This document shows, piece by piece, positions 33,793 to 64,000 of a stretch of DNA of 64,000 nt. The stretch is from the IMG/VR virus record IMGVR_UViG_3300017991_000009, positions 1 to 64,000 of that record. One strand, 5' to 3'. This DNA is from a virus. Made by a program: the position numbers and the translations under genes. The notes below the pieces were generated by a model. That model was given only the letters and a program-made list of their open reading frames with translations, was not told where the DNA came from and did no database searches. Each line of letters opens with the position of its first letter. Positions within the stretch are counted from its first letter, which is position 1.

Positions 33793-34259
33793 GAATCAAG
33801 CATAGGGATGTCACCGCGGCCCGTGACCAACTCTACGACGAGATCTTGGATGAGGGGTGCTACTGCCCCTGCTGTGATCGGTACGCACGGGCCTACGCCA
33901 GGGCAATCAACCACACGATGGCGCGGGCTCTAATCTGGTTGTGCAGGGAGTACCGGCGCACGGGTGAATGGGTCGACGTGCCGAAGACCGCGCCGCGGTG
34001 GCTAGTTAGGTCCAACCAGCTTCCTACCTTGAAGTATTGGGGCTTGGTGCAGCGGAAGCCCAACAACGACCCTGCCAAGAAGTGTAGTGGGCTATGGCGC
34101 CCTACTCCGCGTGGCCGCAGGTTCGCTGGGAGCAGGATCAGGCTGAGGAAGAAAGCATTGGTCTACAACGATCGCGTGCTTGAGTACCAGGGAGAGTTTA
34201 TCTCGGTTGTCGATGCACTTGCACACCACTTCGACTACCGCGAGTTGTGGGAGGGGTAG
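33780..34259 (+). CDS. Zn-ribbon/winged-helix phage protein
   Basis: CPCC..Y.R; LKYWGLV..GLWRPTPRG..F. Confidence 0.65.
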   Translation: MPAVRIKHRDVTAARDQLYDEILDEGCYCPCCDRYARAYARAINHTMARALIWLCREYRRTGEWVDVPKTAPRWLVRSNQLPTLKYWGLVQRKPNNDPAKKCSGLWRPTPRGRRFAGSRIRLRKKALVYNDRVLEYQGEFISVVDALAHHFDYRELWEG

Positions 34260-54600: not shown

Positions 54601-55113
54601 ATGCAAGTCGGAAACATCCCCGAAAGGCACTTTGACGGGCAATCGAACGTCACCCGTGCCTCTAAGAAGGAGGCCGCAGATCTGCACCTGGCGGAACTGC
54701 TGGATCTCATGCAACTCCACCGCGTCCCTTCCAATGTCGAGGCGGCAGCTTTCACGGCCGCGGCTAACGACACCTGGGAGGACGTTGACGTTGTGACACT
54801 CCTCAACGCGGCCCTCTCGTCCGACAGTATCCGGACAGGTGAGGCGGTTATGCTTCTCTGCACCCTGGAGGTGATCAACGGGGAAGCGGCCGTCAACAAC
54901 ATCAAGTATGGGCACGGCGAGATGCCGGACAACGACGATACCGTGAGGACATTCGCTATGGCGGGCGCGGTTGGTTCGGAGTTCATCCAGGGCGTCTGGC
55001 TGATGACCGACGACGACGGCCAGATCAAGTTCGAGACGGACGATACCACCAACGTGACGGTCAAGATCCATCTCGAGGGCTTCCAGTACATCAGGAAGTC
55101 AGCCACTTCCTAG
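54601..55113 (+). CDS. Putative virion structural protein
   Basis: AAGGAGG RBS; lies between terminase and portal. Confidence 0.55.
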   Translation: MQVGNIPERHFDGQSNVTRASKKEAADLHLAELLDLMQLHRVPSNVEAAAFTAAANDTWEDVDVVTLLNAALSSDSIRTGEAVMLLCTLEVINGEAAVNNIKYGHGEMPDNDDTVRTFAMAGAVGSEFIQGVWLMTDDDGQIKFETDDTTNVTVKIHLEGFQYIRKSATS

Positions 55114-55166
55114 TCGTGGGCTACATCTAGGGCGCGGTCACCCACCTCGCCCTTGAGGAGGGTGGC

Positions 55167-56837
55167 ATGACCACAAAACGCAAACGTGCTGCCCGCACGG
55201 CTAAAACCCCGGCGGACGCCGATCGTATCCAACTAGAGGCGATCGACAAGAAGGGGCAGCGGCGGTCGGTTACTCTGAAGGCCACGATAATTGACGGGCC
55301 CGAGGATGAGCCTCCGCGCCTGGACGAGGGGCCCACTAGCGCCGCTGACGAGCGAGACCCCTTCAAGAGCCAGTCGTTGGGTAAGCACCGCATCATTGAT
55401 CCACCCTACAACCAGCGGAACCTCCTCACCCTGAAGGAGAAGTCCAACGTGTTAACGTCGTGCGTGAACAGCATGGTGACTAACACAGTGGGCTTTGGCT
55501 GGCGACTCAGGGAACGCATCATGCCCGATGATCTCCGGCGGAAGTTCGAGTCCGAGATCATACGGGAGAAAATGTCCCTCCTCACGTGGCTTGAATCGGT
55601 GCATCCTACCGAGTCGTTTACCGCGTTGCGTGAGCAGGCGAAGGATGACCAGCACTCCTGCGGCAACGGTTACCTCGAGTTGATCGAGAATAAGGCAGGA
55701 CGCCTGGTCGGACTGAACCACGTACACGGCCACTGCATCAGGTTGTGTGAACGGCAGAAACGCGCCGTGAAGGTAGACGTACCGCGCATCCGGCCGGATA
55801 AGAACTTCATGATCGAGGACGTCGCTATGTGGCACCGCTTCAGGAAGTTCGTCATGATGGTCGGCACCAAGCCTCTCTTCTTTAAAGAGGCAGGCGATCC
55901 AAGGATGTTGGATCGCTACACCGGGGAGTACGGCAAGGACATCCCGTTCAACTGCCGCGCTACCTCACTCCTCCACTTTAAGAACTACTTCGCGGCATAT
56001 GCCTACGGCCTCCCTGTCTGGATCGGAGACACCCTCTCCGTAGTGGGGAGCCGCGAGGCGGAGGAAGTAAACTACGCCACTCTCCGCAACAACTCGATCC
56101 CATCGATGTTTGTCATAGTGGAGAACGGGTCACTTACCCAGGAATCGGTTGACCGCCTGCGGGAGTGGACGGAGCAGCAAATCCAGCGGTCGGCGAACCG
56201 ATCGAAGTTCATCATCCTGGAGGGTGAGACTTCTGACGAGGGGATCATTAATCCCACCGACTTCAAGATCAAAGTCGAGCCCTTGAAGCAACTCCAGCAA
56301 GAGGACCAACTCTACCAGGAACTCGACAAGAACAACCGAGACAAGGTGCGGCAGGCTTTCCGTCTGCCGCCCATCTTTGTTGGTCGGGCCGACGACTACA
56401 CTAGGGCCACGGCCGACACCAGCCGCGATATCGCAGACGAGCAGGTGTTTGCCCCGGAGCGGAACGGTGATGACTTCAAGACCAACCGCTTCATCCTCTT
56501 GCCCCTGGGTTCTCGGTTCCACGTGTTCCGATCGAACCATCCGAACATCACTGACGACATCGAGTTGATCCGCCTGATGGGCATCGCCGAGAAGTCTGGC
56601 GGTATGACCCCGCGGCGTGCCGACCGAATCATCCGTGATGTGTTCGGTGATGATATAGGGCCGATGCCCACCGGCATTGACCTGGACAAGCCCTTTACTA
56701 TCACGTTCGCCGAGGCTCAGCAGGGCGGTACACTTGCGCAAGGCAACGCGAACGCAGACCGAGTTATTGACGGCCTGCTCAACTTGCGTGAGAAGATAGA
56801 GGAGGAGCTTGAAGAAAGGTTGTACCACGAGGAGTAA
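55167..56837 (+). CDS. Portal protein (PBSX/HK97 family)
   Basis: IIDPPY, GNGYLE, LLHFK.Y...YGLP.W, N..IP, VRQAFRLPP.FVG..DYTRATA, EQVF.PE. Confidence 0.9.
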   Translation: MTTKRKRAARTAKTPADADRIQLEAIDKKGQRRSVTLKATIIDGPEDEPPRLDEGPTSAADERDPFKSQSLGKHRIIDPPYNQRNLLTLKEKSNVLTSCVNSMVTNTVGFGWRLRERIMPDDLRRKFESEIIREKMSLLTWLESVHPTESFTALREQAKDDQHSCGNGYLELIENKAGRLVGLNHVHGHCIRLCERQKRAVKVDVPRIRPDKNFMIEDVAMWHRFRKFVMMVGTKPLFFKEAGDPRMLDRYTGEYGKDIPFNCRATSLLHFKNYFAAYAYGLPVWIGDTLSVVGSREAEEVNYATLRNNSIPSMFVIVENGSLTQESVDRLREWTEQQIQRSANRSKFIILEGETSDEGIINPTDFKIKVEPLKQLQQEDQLYQELDKNNRDKVRQAFRLPPIFVGRADDYTRATADTSRDIADEQVFAPERNGDDFKTNRFILLPLGSRFHVFRSNHPNITDDIELIRLMGIAEKSGGMTPRRADRIIRDVFGDDIGPMPTGIDLDKPFTITFAEAQQGGTLAQGNANADRVIDGLLNLREKIEEELEERLYHEE

Positions 56838-56873
56838 TCCCAGTATCTCTGCCGAAGGGCAAGGAGGTTTCTA

Positions 56874-57494
56874 ATGAGTAGCAAGATCGAAGTACACAAG
56901 GTGGAACTCGTCGATGGCGAGGAACTCATGCAGATGGTGGACAAGGTGATTGCCGCGGTCACCCAGTCCAAAGGCAAACTGAAGAAGTCGCTATCCCTGC
57001 GCGGCATCTTCAAGGACCACGTCGTGGTGCGGGACGCGGAGTCCGGCAAGATGTTCCGGATGAAGATGACCCGCGACGACAAGGGCCAGGTCGCCCTGGA
57101 GGGGATGGAGGAAGTCAAGCAGGTATTTGTCCCGGTTAAGCAAAAGGCTGATGGCGCCGGTGATCATACTTGTGTTTGTGCAAGTTGTGGTTATACGGAG
57201 CAGGCGAAAATAGGTGAGGAGTGTCGGGCAAAAACGTGCCCGAAGTGCGGCGCTAAGATGACAAAGGCGCCAGCTAAGAGTGGGGATAAAGATGAGGACA
57301 AAGACAAGAAGGGTAAAACGGAAAAGTCCGATACCCCTGCTGTCACACTTGTTGCAGTTGATGGTGATGTCGTTGAGACCCCACTTAGCCCGCCTGAGAT
57401 CCTCACCCTCCTGAAGTCGGCCTCCGACGAGCAGGGCGAGATGGTCGAGGTCAAGGTCGAGAAGTCCGACAGTATGTGGGCGGGGGTTATTTAG
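56874..57494 (+). CDS. Hypothetical head-region protein with inserted zinc ribbon
   Basis: AAGGAGG RBS; CVCASCG..C...CPKCG encoded in a lower-GC insert. Confidence 0.65.
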   Translation: MSSKIEVHKVELVDGEELMQMVDKVIAAVTQSKGKLKKSLSLRGIFKDHVVVRDAESGKMFRMKMTRDDKGQVALEGMEEVKQVFVPVKQKADGAGDHTCVCASCGYTEQAKIGEECRAKTCPKCGAKMTKAPAKSGDKDEDKDKKGKTEKSDTPAVTLVAVDGDVVETPLSPPEILTLLKSASDEQGEMVEVKVEKSDSMWAGVI

Positions 57495-57516
57495 CTTATC
57501 GGATTTCGATAAGCTA
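57492..57516. repeat. Dispersed 25-bp palindrome, copy 5
   Basis: TAGCTTATCG-GATTT-CGATAAGCTA on the TAG stop of 56874..57494. Confidence 0.9.
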
Positions 57517-57536
57517 ACTGCCATCAATGGAAGCCC

Positions 57537-58544
57537 GTGGTAGGTCTGAATCCCACAAACCTCACCACCGAGGAGTTGTGTGACCTGGGGAGTGCAATTG
57601 ACTCCACGTTGTGTGTCGTGCTCAAGGTCGCGCCTCGGAGGGAGTCTGAGATCATCGAAGGTCGAATTGCCTCGACCATCGGTAGAGCTTGGAAGTCCAC
57701 GGCGAATGCCGCGACCAACTCCGGCATAGCCAAACTCCTCAAGGGCCCTTTCACTGACCGGCGGATCACCTCCTTCCTGAAGTCCTTGGGTGTGAAGCTG
57801 AAGACCCCCCTCACCAAGACCCAGATCAAGGTGATAGAGAAACGGCTCCAGTCTATCTGGAGGATCGCTAAGAAGTGGGCGGCGAAGGAGGCCAAGATCT
57901 CCTTCTCCTTCTCTCACGTTGATCAGCGAGCAGTCGCCGCGATCAACAGGCACCAGGTGTTCTGGGTAGGTGACTTCTACAACGACAAGTTGTCCCGCAG
58001 GATACGGGCCGTGTCTGAGGATGTCCTCCTTCGGCGCGGCCTCTCGCATAAAGAGGCGGGGGCGGTGCTAAGGAGAACTCTTCGCAGGGAGTTCGGTATC
58101 CTCCCTGGCGGTAAGACTAGGTTCGCGCCCACCGTCCCCGCTCGCTATGCGGGAAACCCCGATCTCTACTTCCGACAGGTAGCGTCAACCGCGGCGCACC
58201 AGTCGAGGACCTTCGGCACGTTGACCGCGTTCAGCGAGGCGGGGGTAACCAGCTACCAGCTTATCAACCCGGATGACGAGCGTACCGGGCAGATCTGTCA
58301 ACAGATGAGCGGGCAGGTTTTCTCCGTACAGACGGGGGTGCGGCAGATGAATCGCATCCTTGGAGCGAAGGACCCGAAGGACGTGAAGAAGATCGCCCCG
58401 TGGTTGTCAGGTGACGACATCGAGGCGGCCCTCGCGGGTGCACGCACAGGCAGCCAGCAGGCTACGGATAGGCTTGCCGCTGCAGGTGCGATCCTTCCGC
58501 CGTTCCACGCTTTGTGCAGGACAGATATTGTGATTCCGAGCTAG
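57537..58544 (+). CDS. Head morphogenesis protein (Mu gpF/SPP1 gp7 family)
   Basis: DERT..IC..M.G.VF and PPFHALCRT. Confidence 0.88.
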   Translation: MVGLNPTNLTTEELCDLGSAIDSTLCVVLKVAPRRESEIIEGRIASTIGRAWKSTANAATNSGIAKLLKGPFTDRRITSFLKSLGVKLKTPLTKTQIKVIEKRLQSIWRIAKKWAAKEAKISFSFSHVDQRAVAAINRHQVFWVGDFYNDKLSRRIRAVSEDVLLRRGLSHKEAGAVLRRTLRREFGILPGGKTRFAPTVPARYAGNPDLYFRQVASTAAHQSRTFGTLTAFSEAGVTSYQLINPDDERTGQICQQMSGQVFSVQTGVRQMNRILGAKDPKDVKKIAPWLSGDDIEAALAGARTGSQQATDRLAAAGAILPPFHALCRTDIVIPS

Positions 58545-58546
58545 TC

Positions 58547-58888
58547 ATGAAGAAGCGGACTACGATACAAACTCTCATCTTTGACAAGGCAAAGTTTCCT
58601 ACGAGGGACTCGGTACGTAAGTGGATCAAGGCTCATGGATTTCACATCATGCGCCAAAAGGAGAAAGTGACGAAGCCGGGTATTGACGAAACCGCTGGTA
58701 GCTTTAGAGTGCGCCAGAGGGCGCCTAGTGATTTCGTGCGAGGGTCGTTCAGAACGATTAATATTACTGATGGAGTGAAAGCTGTTATCGGAAGGCTGAA
58801 GTCTAGCGTGAAGAAAACGGGCGTAGTACTTGAAGTAAAAGGCCCCTATGACTTGCTGGATATATTGGAGGAGTTATGTGGCGATTAG
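58547..58888 (+). CDS. Hypothetical protein
   Basis: IQTLIFDK.KF...KWIK.HGF..DET..SFRVRQ pattern. Confidence 0.6.
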   Translation: MKKRTTIQTLIFDKAKFPTRDSVRKWIKAHGFHIMRQKEKVTKPGIDETAGSFRVRQRAPSDFVRGSFRTINITDGVKAVIGRLKSSVKKTGVVLEVKGPYDLLDILEELCGD

Positions 58889-59241
58889 AGAAAGCGTTCA
58901 AATTTGAGGCAGCACATTCCCTGCCTTATCACCGTGGTAAGTGTAAGCGGGTACACGGCCACTCTTGGCATGGGAAGGTAGTCCTTGAGCGTAACGATCT
59001 TACCGAGGATGGCCCCGAGGCGGGAATGGTCACTGACTTTGGGAAGGTAAAGGAGGTGATTGACCAGGTGTTAGACCAGTACCTCGATCACCTGTTCCTC
59101 AACGAATCTACTGGGATGCGCAACCCCACCTCGGAGCTACTTGCGAAGTGGCTCTACGATCACTTGAAGGTTCGCCTGCCGTACCTCGCGGCGATCGTCA
59201 TCCAGGAGACGGACTCGAGCACCTGCGAGTACCGACCGTAG
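58876..59241 (+). CDS. queD: 6-carboxytetrahydropterin synthase
   Basis: FEAAH.L, CKRVHGHSW, GMV.DF, LDH.FLN, NPTSE.LA.W. Confidence 0.95.
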   Translation: MWRLEKAFKFEAAHSLPYHRGKCKRVHGHSWHGKVVLERNDLTEDGPEAGMVTDFGKVKEVIDQVLDQYLDHLFLNESTGMRNPTSELLAKWLYDHLKVRLPYLAAIVIQETDSSTCEYRP

Positions 59242-59244
59242 GCG

Positions 59245-59847
59245 ATGCTGGGGAAGAGGTACATAGTCAAGGAGATCTTCTACTCCCTACAGGGAGAGGG
59301 GATGCGTGCAGGCGAGGCTAGTGTTTTTGTCCGCTTCGCTGGTTGTAACCTTAACTGTAGGAAGGAGACGCATGGTTTCGACTGTGACACCGACTTCAAG
59401 GGCGGTGTGAAACTGACCGCGGAAGGGGTACTCGAGGCAATCAAGAACGTCAACGAGCACTGTCGCTGGATCGTGCTGACCGGCGGGGAGCCCGCCGTGC
59501 AGTTGGATTCGGCACTCGTTTCTGTTCTGAAGGCCGCTGGCTATAGCCTGGCGATCGAAACCAATGGTACAAAGGCCTTGCCCGAGGGGCTTGACTGGAT
59601 ATCAGTTTCGCCGAAGCCCGGTACCTGCCTGGAGCAAACGAGAGCGATGGAGGTGAAATATGTCCTACGTGCTGGTGACCTTTTGCCTACGCGGTCAGAG
59701 ATTAAGGCCGCTTACTATCTATTGAGCCCCGCCTTTGAGGGAAACACTCTGCCCCAGGATAACCTGCGGCACTGCATCAACCTCTGCCTGGGTAACCCCA
59801 AGTGGATCCTTTCTGTCCAACTACACAAGCTAATAGGTGTGAGATGA
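59245..59847 (+). CDS. queE: 7-carboxy-7-deazaguanine synthase (radical SAM)
   Basis: EIFYSLQGEG, FVRFAGCNL.C...CDTDF, LTGGEP, IETNGT, SPK, S.QLHK. Confidence 0.95.
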   Translation: MLGKRYIVKEIFYSLQGEGMRAGEASVFVRFAGCNLNCRKETHGFDCDTDFKGGVKLTAEGVLEAIKNVNEHCRWIVLTGGEPAVQLDSALVSVLKAAGYSLAIETNGTKALPEGLDWISVSPKPGTCLEQTRAMEVKYVLRAGDLLPTRSEIKAAYYLLSPAFEGNTLPQDNLRHCINLCLGNPKWILSVQLHKLIGVR

Positions 59848-60401
59848 GTGAAGATCTAGTACGAGAGATGATTCTAGCGATTGGTGACGACCCCGACCGA
59901 GAAGGTCTGAAGGAAACACCCAAGCGGGTGGTGAAGTCGTGGGCTGAGTTGTACTCAGGCTACAACGCGGATGCGGCTGAGTACTGCAAGGTGTTCTCCG
60001 CGACCTATGATCAAGTAGTGGTGTTCAAGGACATCGACTACTTTTCAATGTGCGAACACCACATGCTGCCTTTCTTCGGGAAGGTGTATATCGCCTACTT
60101 GCCTGCAACCAACGGCAAGCAGGGGGCCAAGGTGATCGGGGCGTCTAAGATGGCCCGAATCGTGAACGTGTTTGCACGCAGGTTGCAGATACAGGAGCAG
60201 ATGACTCAACAGGTCGCGGAAGCGATCCAGGAGATGATTCACCCGAGGGGGTTGGCAGTCATCGTGGATGGGATGCACCTTTGCATGATGGCAAGAGGCG
60301 TGAGTCAGCAACACGCCACGATGCGAACCAGTGCCATGTGGGGCCTCTATCGAGAGGACCACAGGGCGCAGGCTGAAGCCCTTCGGTTGATGGGGTTTTA
60401 G
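59844..60401 (+). CDS. folE: GTP cyclohydrolase I
   Basis: REGL.ETPKRV, SMCEHHMLPFFG, RRLQIQE, HLCMMARGV. Confidence 0.96.
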   Translation: MSEDLVREMILAIGDDPDREGLKETPKRVVKSWAELYSGYNADAAEYCKVFSATYDQVVVFKDIDYFSMCEHHMLPFFGKVYIAYLPATNGKQGAKVIGASKMARIVNVFARRLQIQEQMTQQVAEAIQEMIHPRGLAVIVDGMHLCMMARGVSQQHATMRTSAMWGLYREDHRAQAEALRLMGF

Positions 60402-60402
60402 G

Positions 60403-61146
60403 ATGCCAAAGATCATCCTTGCCCCGCACCTAGATGACGAGGTGATCGGCTGCTACTCCATCCTCGGAGAAGTGGACCGAATCGTGTACTTCACAAGCGA
60501 CTATCGTGAAGAGAACCTGCCCGATGATCGCTACGAGAAGTTCAAGGGCACACTGCCCCACGGCATTGCTGAGGCCGACACGGTATTCCTCCCAAGCAGG
60601 TTCGACCACCATCCCTTTCACCGATATGTCCGCAACGTCGGGCTCGGGCTTCCTGGGATCAAGTGGTTCTATAGCGTTGAAATGAACGTACCGTGGTTAG
60701 AAGAGGAAGCGGACCCTGACGGGAAGTGGGCCATGATGGAACGGCTTTACCCGCAGGAGGTACCACGGCTCGTTGATCATAAGTATCGGCTGTTCAAGAG
60801 TATCAAGCCGTTCGACGAAGTGATCCGGGCTAGCGTGAAGATCGTCATTGAAAGGTGGCACCGCTGGCCCGCTGCACCGGAGAAGGTCGCGTTCTTGCGC
60901 AACCTCCACCGCCACTTGTTCCACGTCAACGTGCGCGTTCAGCAGTTCCAAGACGACCGCGACCTTGAATACTTCCTGTTGAGGGAAGAGGTGGGAGAGA
61001 TTGTCAACGGGTTCAAGTGGGAAGAACGCACCAGTTGTGAAATGCTAGCCCTTAGCGTAAAGCGAACATTGGAAATGAGGTACCTCGACCGAATGGTTCA
61101 GGTATCAGTCTATGAGGACAACGAAAACGGATGCGAGGTGGAGTGA
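60403..61146 (+). CDS. PIG-L/LmbE-type deacetylase fused to a DpdL-like T-fold domain
   Basis: N-terminal ILAPHLDDEVIGC and DHHPFH; C-terminal HRWP.AP..V.FLRNLHRHLFH, DRDLEY, SCEMLA, V.EDNENG. Confidence 0.7.
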   Translation: MPKIILAPHLDDEVIGCYSILGEVDRIVYFTSDYREENLPDDRYEKFKGTLPHGIAEADTVFLPSRFDHHPFHRYVRNVGLGLPGIKWFYSVEMNVPWLEEEADPDGKWAMMERLYPQEVPRLVDHKYRLFKSIKPFDEVIRASVKIVIERWHRWPAAPEKVAFLRNLHRHLFHVNVRVQQFQDDRDLEYFLLREEVGEIVNGFKWEERTSCEMLALSVKRTLEMRYLDRMVQVSVYEDNENGCEVE

Positions 61147-61880
61147 TGAAACACGTAGGCGAAAACAAACACGTAGGCGAAAACATCGTCGATATAGCCA
61201 ATGAGGGCCGCAAGCTCAACCTGTTTCAGGTTGAGGTAACCAACATATGCAACGGCAAGTGTGAATACTGCCCACAGTCGACAATGAAACGAAAGGCGGG
61301 GTATATCTCGCCTATGGTGTACCGCTCGGCGCTTCACGCAATGGAGAACGACGCCTTCCACCTGCATGGGCACGGGGAAACCTTGATGCACAAGCAGGTG
61401 GTTGAGATGGTGGACCTTGCCACCAGCTTGGGTAAGGAGGTCGGGTTTTCAACCAACGGCTCCCTTCTCACGCAGGAGAAACTCGATGCGTTGGCCCAGG
61501 CCGGGTTGAAGTGGCTCCGTCTGCACGTCGGCCCGTTCGGTGTGCGGCTCAACCAGTTCAAGGTACCCGAAGGCTTGATCGCCACCGAGCACCGGGTGGG
61601 CGATAACGGTCCCGAGGAGGTTGAGGACAAAGGGATGACTTCGTGGGGTGGTTGGGTGGATGGTGTCGAGGAAACAGGAGGGGCTGACCGCTGCTCCTTT
61701 TTAGGGTACCCCAACGGCAAGGAGTGGCGGTGCTTGCTCTACGACGGAACGGTAACTTTGTGTTGCGTTGACTACGAAGGTGGTGCTACACAAAGTGACA
61801 TCTGTAGCAAGTGCCGTGGGTTTGTTTTCAGGAGCCCTCGCGATTGGGGAAACTATGACGGCGAAGGCTGGGAATTCTAG
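61146..61880 (+). CDS. Radical SAM protein with Twitch/SPASM-like C-terminus
   Basis: CNGKCEYC, GHGE.LMH, STNGSLL, C...YDG.V.LCC.DY, C.KC. Confidence 0.88.
   Translation: MKHVGENKHVGENIVDIANEGRKLNLFQVEVTNICNGKCEYCPQSTMKRKAGYISPMVYRSALHAMENDAFHLHGHGETLMHKQVVEMVDLATSLGKEVGFSTNGSLLTQEKLDALAQAGLKWLRLHVGPFGVRLNQFKVPEGLIATEHRVGDNGPEEVEDKGMTSWGGWVDGVEETGGADRCSFLGYPNGKEWRCLLYDGTVTLCCVDYEGGATQSDICSKCRGFVFRSPRDWGNYDGEGWEF
61149..61184 (+). repeat. 18-bp tandem duplication
   Basis: AAACACGTAGGCGAAAAC twice (KHVGEN twice). Confidence 0.85.
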
Positions 61881-61889
61881 GAGCGAATC

Positions 61890-62330
61890 ATGAATACGAA
61901 AGTGCAAGCGGCAAAGCATGTGATTGCGGACGCGATAGCGAAACACGATCACCGAATCTACGTGGCGTACTCAGGCGGCAAGGACAGCCAGGCTCTCCTG
62001 CGGTTGGTGCGCTCGGTCAACCCCCACGCCCTGGTCGTGCACAATGGCTACGAGGGTGAATCGGTCGAAGACGAGTTCGGCATCTTGAAGGTCAAGCCCC
62101 CCAAGGCAGAGACCGTGCCGAAGTTCATGGAGGCGGTTGACCTTGGTGCGCAGTTCGATGCAACGCGCCGCGCCGAGAACAAGCTGGTGTGTATCGACGG
62201 CAAGGAGATCCACCGCAGCAACATGACCGGCCCCTACACCGCAAAAGGTTACTTCGGGCTGGAAGTCTACTTCCCTCTCTGGGACTGGTCAGACGAGGAA
62301 GTGCTGACCTTCTTGGAGGTGAGCGAATGA
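61890..62330 (+). CDS. Minimal PAPS-reductase-family PP-loop protein
   Basis: VAYSGGKDS, ATRRAE, FPLWDWSDEEV. Confidence 0.8.
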   Translation: MNTKVQAAKHVIADAIAKHDHRIYVAYSGGKDSQALLRLVRSVNPHALVVHNGYEGESVEDEFGILKVKPPKAETVPKFMEAVDLGAQFDATRRAENKLVCIDGKEIHRSNMTGPYTAKGYFGLEVYFPLWDWSDEEVLTFLEVSE

Positions 62331-62857
62331 AGGTTGACCGCTGCCACTACAGTTATGACGGCGAGGGAGATCTAATCGGTACCAAGACCTTCTTTTGTCA
62401 CTACCCAGGTGAGACCTCAATCGAGCAGTTTGACTTGAGCAAGGTAGGGGCGGTCTTTGTCAATACGGACACCCTTGACGAGACCCTTGGAGGGTGGATC
62501 GACCGTTGCGGTAAGATAGTGACGGTTGAGGTAGACGGGGAGGTGTTGAACACGACGCCCGCCGTAACCATCGACCTTGATGGTGCGAGGCTGTTCGTTG
62601 TCGTGGATCGCTTTTTCCCGCACCTCGTCAACTTCACTGGGTTCGTAAAGGTTAGAGTAATGGCCGAAGCTAACCTCCCTGAGTGCTTGAGGCTGGCAAA
62701 TACCTACGCGATGCAAGGGCGGCAAGTCCTCCTGATGCCCGAGTTTACTGACATCGGGCACAAGGAGGTAGGTGAGGTCATGATGGGGATCTACGATGAG
62801 GTCCACCCGCTGGTGCGGGTCATGCCTCCAGTTCAGTTCCTCTTGGGGGTGAAGTGA
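62327..62857 (+). CDS. Degenerate QueE-like paralogue lacking the Fe-S motif
   Basis: HYSYDGEGDLIGTKTFFCHYPG aligns with QueE FYSLQGEGMRAGEASVFVRFAG; C-terminus PPVQFLLGVK vs VQLHKLIGVR. Confidence 0.6.
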   Translation: MKVDRCHYSYDGEGDLIGTKTFFCHYPGETSIEQFDLSKVGAVFVNTDTLDETLGGWIDRCGKIVTVEVDGEVLNTTPAVTIDLDGARLFVVVDRFFPHLVNFTGFVKVRVMAEANLPECLRLANTYAMQGRQVLLMPEFTDIGHKEVGEVMMGIYDEVHPLVRVMPPVQFLLGVK

Positions 62858-63924
62858 TGCTCTACTATCTGCCTATCGAACCGCTTGAGGAGAGGTACAC
62901 CGAGCAGTGGTATCGGTGGTTCCCGGAAGAGTTCAAGCGGCAAGGGATTCGCTACCAGACTATCGACGGGGAGACCCTCGTTGATGAGGTTCAGGTAGGG
63001 ACGTTTCTGGACGTGAACTCAACGCTCTATTACAAGGCAGAGCAACTCAGGCGTGTCGCCAAACTCTTTCACCATGGGTTGATCGAGAGTGGTGACAAGT
63101 TCTTTGTGGCGGATGTCGAGTTTTGGGGTATCGAAAGTATCAGGTACCTCGCCACCCTCAACAAGGTGGACGTGGGGATCCTCGGGTTCTGTCACGCAGG
63201 GAGTTACACGGTTGAGGATTTCATGGAACCGTGCGCACCCTTCGCTCACCACTACGAGACCGCTTGGGGATCGGTCTTTGATATGATCTTCGTTGGGAGC
63301 GAGTACCATAAGCGTATGCTGGTGGAAAAGCGGAAGCTGCCCGCTGACAAGCTCATGGTTACCGGCAACCCCTACGATGCGTCAGAAGTGCCTAAGCTGA
63401 ACCTCCCTGTGAACCACACACGGGTCATCCTCACCAATCGCCCTGACCCTGAGAAACGTCCCGAGGTCACACTGAAGGTTTTCGCTCAACTTAAGAAACA
63501 ACACCCCTCTTGGGACTTTCTGGTGACCACTGGCCGCAAACAGTGGGGCTCGGGTGCCGTTAGAAACACCGCCCTTGCCCTGCGGGACCAGGGTGTGATC
63601 ACCATTCACGAAGGTATCTCAAAAGGCGAGTACCTCGAACTGCTAGCAAGTAGCCGCGTCATGACAGGGAACACCATTGAGGAGAACTTCGGGTATTGCG
63701 TCCTGGAGGCCCTTTTGGTTGACACCATCCCTGTTGTGCCGAACGACTTTAGCCACCCTGAACTACTCCAGAATGACGAAAGGTGCCTCTTTGACACTAC
63801 AGGTCGTCAGATGACCTTGATCGAACGTGCAATAGAGGATCCTTTTTCCGTTCTAGGGTATAGTAAGCGGTACGAGGATTCGCTTGCGGCGATAGTGCTA
63901 AGTATCAAGGAGGGCCGACCATGA
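62854..63924 (+). CDS. GT-B glycosyltransferase (phage DNA-modification type)
   Basis: IEPLEERYT.QW, HAGSY..EDF, R.DPEK.P, EENFGY..LEA, P.VPN.FSHPE. Confidence 0.85.
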   Translation: MMLYYLPIEPLEERYTEQWYRWFPEEFKRQGIRYQTIDGETLVDEVQVGTFLDVNSTLYYKAEQLRRVAKLFHHGLIESGDKFFVADVEFWGIESIRYLATLNKVDVGILGFCHAGSYTVEDFMEPCAPFAHHYETAWGSVFDMIFVGSEYHKRMLVEKRKLPADKLMVTGNPYDASEVPKLNLPVNHTRVILTNRPDPEKRPEVTLKVFAQLKKQHPSWDFLVTTGRKQWGSGAVRNTALALRDQGVITIHEGISKGEYLELLASSRVMTGNTIEENFGYCVLEALLVDTIPVVPNDFSHPELLQNDERCLFDTTGRQMTLIERAIEDPFSVLGYSKRYEDSLAAIVLSIKEGRP

Positions 63925-64000
63925 AGTTTTATTTCGTAGCAGGAGCTAACGACTCCGTGAACGTACTGTTGGACGAAAAGGTCCGGTCTATCCTCGTGTC
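63921..64000 (+). CDS. Partial CDS truncated by the window; possibly a TGT-like DpdA
   Basis: ATGA coupling and AAGGAGG RBS; MKFYFVAGANDSVNVLLDEKVRSILV; identity guessed only from context and a TIM-barrel-like first strand. Confidence 0.35.
   Translation, partial: MKFYFVAGANDSVNVLLDEKVRSILV

Follow-up and report, generated by a model that had tools for sequence, protein, structure and literature searches.

Why would a phage join, in one polypeptide, a domain of the LmbE/PIG-L type to DpdL, a protein of 7-deazaguanine DNA modification? The question is raised by a gene at 60403..61146 (plus strand) of the window analyzed here. The window covers the initial 64 kb of a viral genome that is complete at 95,166 bp and has terminal repeats. 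In the literature searched, DpdL is described only in one 2023 paper (Cui, Hutinet et al., NAR 2023, PMC10516641) and its preprint, and no word beginning with 'glycosyl' occurs in that paper. DpdL is a QueD paralogue for which a role as a decarboxylase of 7-carboxy-7-deazaguanine (CDG) is only proposed, and when dpdL and dpdA of phiST or ACP17 were expressed together in E. coli, no dDG was formed (PMC10516641). We found no description in the literature searched of a deazaguanine/DpdA module accompanied by a glycosyltransferase, a deacetylase, LmbE or PIG-L.

A fusion gene in a phage 7-deazaguanine operon that lacks queC

The fusion gene is part of a translationally coupled phage operon that lacks queC and encodes the enzymes expected for 7-deazaguanine modification of DNA:

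58876..59241, plus strand: QueD (CPH4 synthase); Pfam PTPS 1.5e-32, TIGR03367 above its cut-off
59245..59847, plus strand: QueE (CDG synthase); phrog_2076 2.5e-31, TIGR04508 2.5e-51
59802..60401, plus strand: FolE (GTP cyclohydrolase I); Pfam 1.1e-64
60403..61146, plus strand: fusion of an LmbE-like domain and DpdL, between FolE and the radical SAM gene
61131..61880, plus strand, likely true start 61146: additional radical SAM enzyme, Cys-rich at its C-terminus
61890..62330, plus strand: PP-loop (PAPS-reductase-like) ATPase
62327..62857, plus strand: 176-aa protein resembling the QueE N-terminus, without CxxxCxxC
62854..63924, plus strand: GT-B glycosyltransferase of the GT4 type; Pfam Glycos_transf_1 2e-9, EX7E motif
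63921-65027, plus strand, of which the window holds 63921..64000: DpdA-like transglycosylase; phrog_887 1.4e-19

The ATG of the fusion gene lies 1 nt downstream of the FolE stop codon, and its own TGA overlaps the probable start codon of the radical SAM gene (TGATG, 61144-61148). A search of the complete 95-kb genome for QueC (PF06508) gave no match at E ≤ 1. The genome encodes FolE, QueD, QueE and a DpdA-like protein and not QueC, the setting from which DpdL was originally described and one shared with phiST and ACP17. In pairwise BLAST of the DpdA-like protein, phiST DpdA3 and the TGT-like protein of X1 were matched with E-values of 0.02-0.03; Pfam TGT gave no match at the DpdA-like gene, and its sole match in the genome (15.8 bits) fell in an unrelated ORF at 33819-33917.

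Three genes separate the fusion from the glycosyltransferase. The extra radical SAM enzyme was found, among related loci, only in the closest relative (L006). Homologues of the PP-loop ATPase were present in 7 of the 15 related loci and also in phages X1 and BCSR5, and in two loci (L008 and L014) the PP-loop protein and the QueE-like 176-aa protein form a single fused product. Such a PP-loop::QueE-like module could activate the carboxylate of CDG, a role that would fit poorly with prior decarboxylation. The genes flanking the operon encode portal and minor head proteins at one end and a prohead protease at the other.

Relatives of the fusion protein were plentiful, with 3,518 recovered at E ≤ 1e-3 in an exhaustive profile search and about 40 full-length homologues (245-281 aa, 39-62% identity) coming from separate metagenomes. 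A scan of 185,579 species-representative cellular genomes with the fusion alignment returned no relative, which suggests that the module is restricted to viruses. At the nucleotide level, megablast of positions 55000-64000 against phage records gave no match. In a FastTree phylogeny of the 105-aa DpdL domain (172 sequences), the fused forms fell into at least six groups among standalone ones, with weak support.

The preliminary description of this DNA had named an assembly artefact as a concern. That an assembly error, or a frameshift, had joined two neighboring genes would agree with the arrangement in the cultured Xanthomonas phages X1 and BUDD and Burkholderia phage BCSR5, in which the two domains are encoded by separate genes. 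However, among 192 relatives that we collected, 92 were fused, 27 had the N-terminal domain without DpdL and 73 consisted of DpdL alone; the 92 fused proteins came from independent metagenomes, and the fused gene was present on 15 IMG/VR contigs. Because the fusion is retained so widely, because the identical protein sequence is encoded on 5 contigs, and with a structural model that has a pLDDT above 90 across the junction, we give this explanation virtually no weight and consider an assembly artefact ruled out.

The two halves of the fusion protein

The gene is translated without an internal stop into a protein of 247 aa, in which the following features were located:

60403..60816, plus strand (residues 1-138): predicted minimal LmbE/PIG-L-fold metallohydrolase domain
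60421-60441, plus strand (residues 7-13): APHLDDE, in the N-half
60427-60438, plus strand: H9-x-D11-D12, in the N-domain
60604-60621, plus strand (residues 68-73): DHHPFH (HxxH), in the N-half
60610-60621, plus strand: H70-x-x-H73, in the N-domain
residues 90-102: subfamily motif YSVEMNVPWLEEE, in the N-domain
60817..61143, plus strand (residues 139-247): DpdL-type T-fold domain
60895-60921, plus strand (residues 165-173): LRNLHRHLF, in the C-half

The PHxDDE and HxxH motifs that had been noticed in the N-half are therefore present, as APHLDDE and DHHPFH, as is the LRNLHRHLF of the C-half. These motifs are not chance occurrences, because 114-117 of 120 N-domain relatives, standalone forms included, retain each of H9, D11, D12, E13, H70 and H73, and LxxxHRHxF is the form found in 123 C-domains among those examined. 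An AlphaFold (AF2) model built on an alignment of 41 homologues had a pLDDT of 93.8 and replaced a model made from the single sequence, with a pLDDT of 46.9; in it, the protein forms two domains that pack against each other.

The C-terminal half is homologous to the proteins that carry the name DpdL and has a T-fold with a predicted three-His metal site. In comparisons with VIA-align its matches were T-folds, those of PTPS/QueD among them, at Z 9-11.2 (3d7j, Z 11.2; 3qn0, Z 11.0; 2dj6, Z 10.9), and Foldseek also returned QueD/PTPS, with E. coli QueD at a probability of 1.00. Among PHROG families, phrog_17812 (unknown function) spans residues 147-246 of the fusion (1.7e-14). By tblastn, the C-half matched phiST (E 8e-5) and ACP17 (E 9e-9), the former match being CGPG_00067, the protein named DpdL in the 2023 paper, and the latter gp125; profile comparison gave E-values of 5.8e-19 to the phiST DpdL and 1.4e-27 to the ACP17 DpdL. 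Both the T-fold and the identity with DpdL, which the preliminary description had proposed from the letters of the sequence, were thus borne out.

The signature on which that proposal was based, given there as LxxxHRHxF, agrees with the published form, which replaces the CxxxHGH of QueD (PMC10516641). It reads L165-RNL-H169-R-H171-L-F173 in the fusion, and L165, H169, R170 and H171 are invariant across the 41 homologues. Also invariant in the C-domain are H153, H169, H171, E213 and E238, the three His and two Glu that it has in common with QueD and with the LxxxHRHxF T-folds of phiST and ACP17, whereas an insertion of QueD is absent in the alignment with these two DpdL proteins. What sets the protein apart from phiST and ACP17 DpdL is that DpdL here makes up only the C-terminal of two domains. 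The domain is predicted to decarboxylate CDG to 7-deazaguanine; DpdL has been proposed to act on the free base (PMC10516641). In PA5oct-like phages the signature takes the form LxxxHFHxF.

The model shows the N-terminal half as an LmbE/PIG-L-fold metallohydrolase with a predicted intact His-x-Asp-Asp...His site. An exhaustive structural comparison of residues 1-138 (VIA-align) returned, at Z ≥ 9, chains of the LmbE superfamily only:

2ixd, BshB/BC1534: Z 11.7, 137 aa, rmsd 2.9
3we7, diacetylchitobiose deacetylase: Z 10.8
3dfi, Dbv21: Z 10.4
1uan, TT1542: Z 10.4
5cgz, GalB (a hydratase): Z 10.3
1q7t, MshB: Z 9.2
5bmo, LnmX: Z 9.0

In the ESM Atlas, residues 1-140 adjoin clusters of viral proteins, 95% of whose members carry PF02585, with a structural TM of 0.76-0.86. 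The metal-binding and general-base motif of the LmbE family, HXD1D2 plus H (PMC4101496), corresponds in the fusion to H9-L-D11-D12 plus H70-P-F-H73. Sequence profiles were less telling. The Pfam PIG-L model (PF02585) scored 16.5 bits, over residues 5-21 only, against a gathering cut-off of 28.2 bits, and gave weak, sub-threshold matches in 28 of the 41 homologues (best E 4.2e-4); NCBIfam had no match to the fusion, and a profile search of PDB sequences with the fusion alignment found none at E ≤ 10, so that the N-domain is tied to the LmbE enzymes through fold comparison only. The earlier reading of the N-half as a PIG-L deacetylase agrees with the fold and the HxDD+H motif, although the Pfam score stays below the PIG-L cut-off, and we file the domain, by fold and motif, as a divergent member of the LmbE superfamily.

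The N-domain is also the smallest LmbE-type domain seen so far. Its 138 residues lack the usual LmbE C-terminal subdomain, and the ligand spacer from D12 to H73 spans 61 residues, in contrast to 97-148 residues in known LmbE members (PMC4101496). Standalone N-domain proteins have C-terminal tails of 50-87 aa, which gave an hhalign probability of 1.6% against the T-fold and no significant HMM matches.

Could so reduced a domain be a non-catalytic scaffold or oligomerization module for the T-fold, with only the DpdL chemistry of consequence? T-folds such as PTPS/QueD form hexamers. The LmbE enzyme BshB is hexameric too (PMC4101496), and the domain is truncated relative to known enzymes. Yet at least 95% of 120 N-domains retain the residues for metal binding and general-base catalysis, which is unexpected for a pseudoenzyme and argues for a working enzyme, and standalone N-domain proteins occur apart from DpdL in X1 and BCSR5; we consider a scaffold very improbable. 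As a working enzyme, the N-domain probably strips an N-acetyl group from a sugar. All LmbE enzymes characterized up to a 2014 review act on GlcNAc-containing substrates (PMC4101496).

Glycosyltransferases in the neighborhood of DpdL

The operon also encodes a glycosyltransferase (GT), at 62854..63924. Its EX7E motif corresponds to E277...E285, both invariant, and profile searches gave distant matches to GlgM, MshA, TreT and BshA (the first three from the PDB). The family is rare, being present in 18 of 50,697 phage records. In a survey of co-occurrence, all 15 viral loci that carry the fusion had the GT as well, within about 1.5 kb and at 46-67% identity, and across these loci the GT is more conserved than the fusion itself. 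The preliminary description had taken the fusion as an argument that the GT belongs to the same pathway; this strict co-occurrence supports the same claim independently of the fusion. A complex prediction for the GT and the fusion, run without controls, gave scores of 0.00, 0.54 and 0.00.

The association extends to DpdL in general. At least 563 IMG/VR stretches encode DpdL, and in 52 of 80 viral DpdL loci that were fetched a member of the GT family lay near DpdL (within about 4 kb, E ≤ 3e-36; mostly within 1.3 kb, many of the contigs being incomplete). When one locus per phage group was inspected (n = 6: X1, BCSR5, ACP17, Phosso, BUCT-ZZ01 and the PA5oct-like PAC2), the GT was in the QueE cluster beside a DpdL homologue in all six. 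The GT gene of ACP17 is directly upstream of dpdL, and a missing partner is therefore a possible reason for the failed reconstitution of dDG. phiST, in contrast, has neither a GT nor an LmbE-like domain, and its DNA contains plain dDG.

The LmbE-like domain is more narrowly distributed. None of 95 viral loci examined had an N-domain without a GT, and the GT accompanies the N-domain also where the latter is split from DpdL, in X1, BUDD and BCSR5. Furthermore, the N-domain is partnered only by GTs at least 41% identical to the one encoded here, whereas identity to it is 22-32% for the 51 GTs that have no N-domain partner. In ACP17 and PA5oct, DpdL is accompanied by such a distant GT and not by an LmbE-like domain. 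The distribution is thus nested, DpdL ⊃ GT ⊃ LmbE-like, a pattern expected if the GT acts on the DpdL product and the LmbE-like domain on the sugar of one GT subfamily. The natural candidate for the attached sugar would be an N-acetylhexosamine, and the tracking of one GT subfamily by the N-domain is the only hint at such a donor.

These same distributions bear on the possibility that the LmbE-like domain hydrolyzes another bond, for example an amide that the PP-loop::QueE-like enzyme would form at the carboxylate of CDG, or hydrates an intermediate as GalB does, in which case the GT step would be chemically independent of the N-domain. The fit of the N-domain to the hydratase GalB (Z 10.3) equals its fit to the deacetylases, all of the known ones being much longer than it, and PP-loop enzymes form amides from CDG in roseomycin-type clusters. 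The PP-loop module moreover occurs with the N-domain in X1, BUDD and BCSR5 and in 7 of the 15 viral loci. The other 8 of the 15, however, have the N-domain without the PP-loop module, and it never occurs without the close GT subfamily; in addition, the domain retains the complete HxDD+H site found in the deacetylases, and the GlcNAc-containing substrates of all LmbE enzymes characterized up to the 2014 review (PMC4101496) argue for a sugar. We therefore regard action on another bond as unlikely, though it is the alternative that we take most seriously, and we retain de-N-acetylation of a sugar as the predicted role of the domain.

A predicted pathway and its relation to known systems

Taking all of this together, we think it somewhat more likely than not that the fusion acts, in a QueC-less operon and alongside a dedicated GT, toward a hexosamine-bearing 7-deazaguanine in virion DNA. 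The substrate, the sugar and the attachment site in this product are ones that we infer. In the proposed pathway, FolE, QueD and QueE would first produce CDG, and the DpdL domain would remove or transform its C7 carboxyl, as proposed for phiST. The DpdA-like enzyme would swap guanine in DNA for the deazaguanine, the GT would add an N-acetylhexosamine to the deazaguanine, and the LmbE-like domain would finally take off the acetyl group to leave a free cationic amino sugar. The order of the steps and the form of the substrate, free base or DNA, may vary in this proposal.

7-Deazaguanine has no hydroxyl, and the acceptor would therefore have to be C7, C8 or N2. A carbon or an N2 amine is an unusual acceptor for GT4 enzymes. 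The strict dependence on DpdL would be explained more easily if the sugar were attached at the position that DpdL uncovers.

The combination of a GT4 enzyme with an LmbE enzyme is itself familiar, since the pairs MshA/MshB (mycothiol), BshA/BshB (bacillithiol) and PIG-A/PIG-L (GPI-anchor) install amino sugars. The fusion shares with such pairs the LmbE fold (Z 9.2-11.7 over 134-137 residues) and the HxDD+H motif, and its partner is likewise a GT-B enzyme with EX7E, here in strict genomic pairing. The difference lies in the substrate, which is predicted here to be a nucleobase or DNA adduct, whereas theirs is a lipid, inositol or malate glycoside, and in the dimensions of the N-domain, which set it apart from known LmbE deacetylases along with its score below the PF02585 cut-off. 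In T-even phages, glucosyl-5-hydroxymethylcytosine is likewise the result of a post-replicative addition of sugar to phage DNA against restriction. In T-even phages, GT63/GT72 enzymes attach the sugars to hydroxymethyl pyrimidines. The predicted target here is instead a purine analogue, with a sugar trimmed to the amine.

A precedent for a GT4-type enzyme on a base derived from 7-deazaguanine is HuiG of the huimycin pathway (PF13439), which transfers GlcNAc from UDP-GlcNAc onto N2 of a preQ0-derived free base (bioRxiv 10.64898/2026.04.15.718813). HuiG belongs to bacterial secondary metabolism, in clusters that have neither DpdA nor DpdL and for which the text consulted mentions no deacetylase. 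A further possibility is that the GT and the LmbE-like domain produce a small metabolite, for instance a deazapurine or pterin bearing a sugar, or act on a host target, with DpdL co-opted for the purpose. Huimycin and dapiramicin are both glycosylated 7-deazaguanine metabolites made by GT4-type enzymes on the free base; DpdL is itself proposed to be a free-base enzyme (PMC10516641), and some phages with a DpdL-GT pair encode phosphoribosyltransferases beside the cluster. Against a small molecule, the DpdA-like gene directly follows the GT gene here and in several relatives, and the module is restricted to viruses, with none in the 185,579 species genomes. Furthermore, PA5oct carries the DpdL-GT pair, and its DNA resists several restriction enzymes in a pattern that points to a modified G (PMC12191111). 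We accordingly find a small-molecule or host-directed role improbable, and modification of the phage's own DNA remains our preferred reading.

A bolder version of this preferred reading can be put forward only tentatively, and we would sooner expect it to fail than to hold. Phage DNA is known to contain eight derivatives of 7-deazaguanine, of which, to our knowledge, none bears a sugar. The product predicted here might then be the first sugar-decorated purine analogue in DNA, a 7-deazaguanine to which the DpdL-dedicated GT adds HexNAc, possibly through a C-glycosidic bond at C7, and from which the LmbE-like domain then removes the N-acetyl group. Since about two thirds of viral DpdL loci have the GT, glycosylated deazaguanine would then be the rule, from which phiST with its plain dDG departs.

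The module is a variation on the known 7-deazaguanine DNA-modification systems, and the chemistry of its product is a prediction. The fusion provides a Rosetta-stone link between DpdL, the least understood enzyme of the field, and a predicted sugar-trimming chemistry. That DpdL usually occurs with a dedicated GT may explain why dpdL and dpdA alone gave no product. The cultured phages X1, BUDD, BCSR5, ACP17 and PA5oct open the prediction to direct mass spectrometry of their DNA, in which the pathway would amount to a new class of anti-restriction DNA modification.

Prevalence of DpdL and its glycosyltransferase

DpdL, the proposed decarboxylase of CDG (7-carboxy-7-deazaguanine), is encoded on at least 563 viral stretches in IMG/VR, whereas the literature suggests that it is much rarer. 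Because a dedicated glycosyltransferase adjoins DpdL in 52 of 80 sampled IMG/VR loci (L026-L105), the layout of Cellulophaga phage phiST, which has DpdL without this enzyme, is in the minority. A further homologue was found in a Pseudomonas phage:

L024:8147-8524, unannotated 125-aa DpdL homologue of vB_Pa-PAC2 (PA5oct-like), profile E 2e-23

It carries the variant signature LxxxHFHxF and adjoins a GT4 gene, in a cluster that also encodes an epimerase-domain protein and a phosphoribosyltransferase.

Tailoring genes around the operon core

Between the fusion of the LmbE/PIG-L-fold and DpdL-type domains and the glycosyltransferase gene, the window encodes:

61131-61880, extra radical SAM enzyme with a Cys-rich SPASM/twitch-like C-terminus
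61890-62330, PP-loop ATPase
62327-62857, QueE-N-terminal-like protein without the CxxxCxxC motif

In the radical SAM enzyme, KHVGEN is duplicated in tandem at the N-terminus; among the relatives with a related operon, only the closest one (L006) has this enzyme. The genes for the PP-loop ATPase and QueE-N-terminal-like protein share an ATGA overlap, and two relatives encode the pair as one 351-aa protein:

L008:7678-8733
L014:8802-9857

Phages X1 and BCSR5 have weak homologues of the pair, which may constitute a CDG-binding adenylating enzyme. Another relative differs in its complement:

L009:6911-7450, 179-aa SAM-methyltransferase-like ORF (VLDVGCGIG), in place of the PP-loop module between fusion and glycosyltransferase
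L009:4239-5609, 456-aa radical SAM ORF between QueE and FolE

Both kinds of ORF also occur in L010-L012, of the same sublineage. The core is fixed, and the tailoring genes around it appear modular.

Operon placement and the prohead protease

In the region 55167-65027 (genome coordinates extending beyond 64000), the entire modification operon lies inserted within the late head-morphogenesis block, flanked on one side by portal and minor head genes and on the other by protease, scaffold and capsid genes. In phages ACP17, X1 and Phosso, by contrast, the operon adjoins replication genes. The DpdA-like gene (63921 onward) and the prohead protease gene are separate in the window genome, with an 8-nt overlap. 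Three relatives encode the DpdA-like protein and an XkdF-type prohead protease in a single ORF:

L006:8004-9620, 538 aa
L007:10333-15540, 1735 aa
L009:8515-10548, 677 aa

Through this tie to the head protease, the DNA base-exchange enzyme may be loaded into the procapsid.
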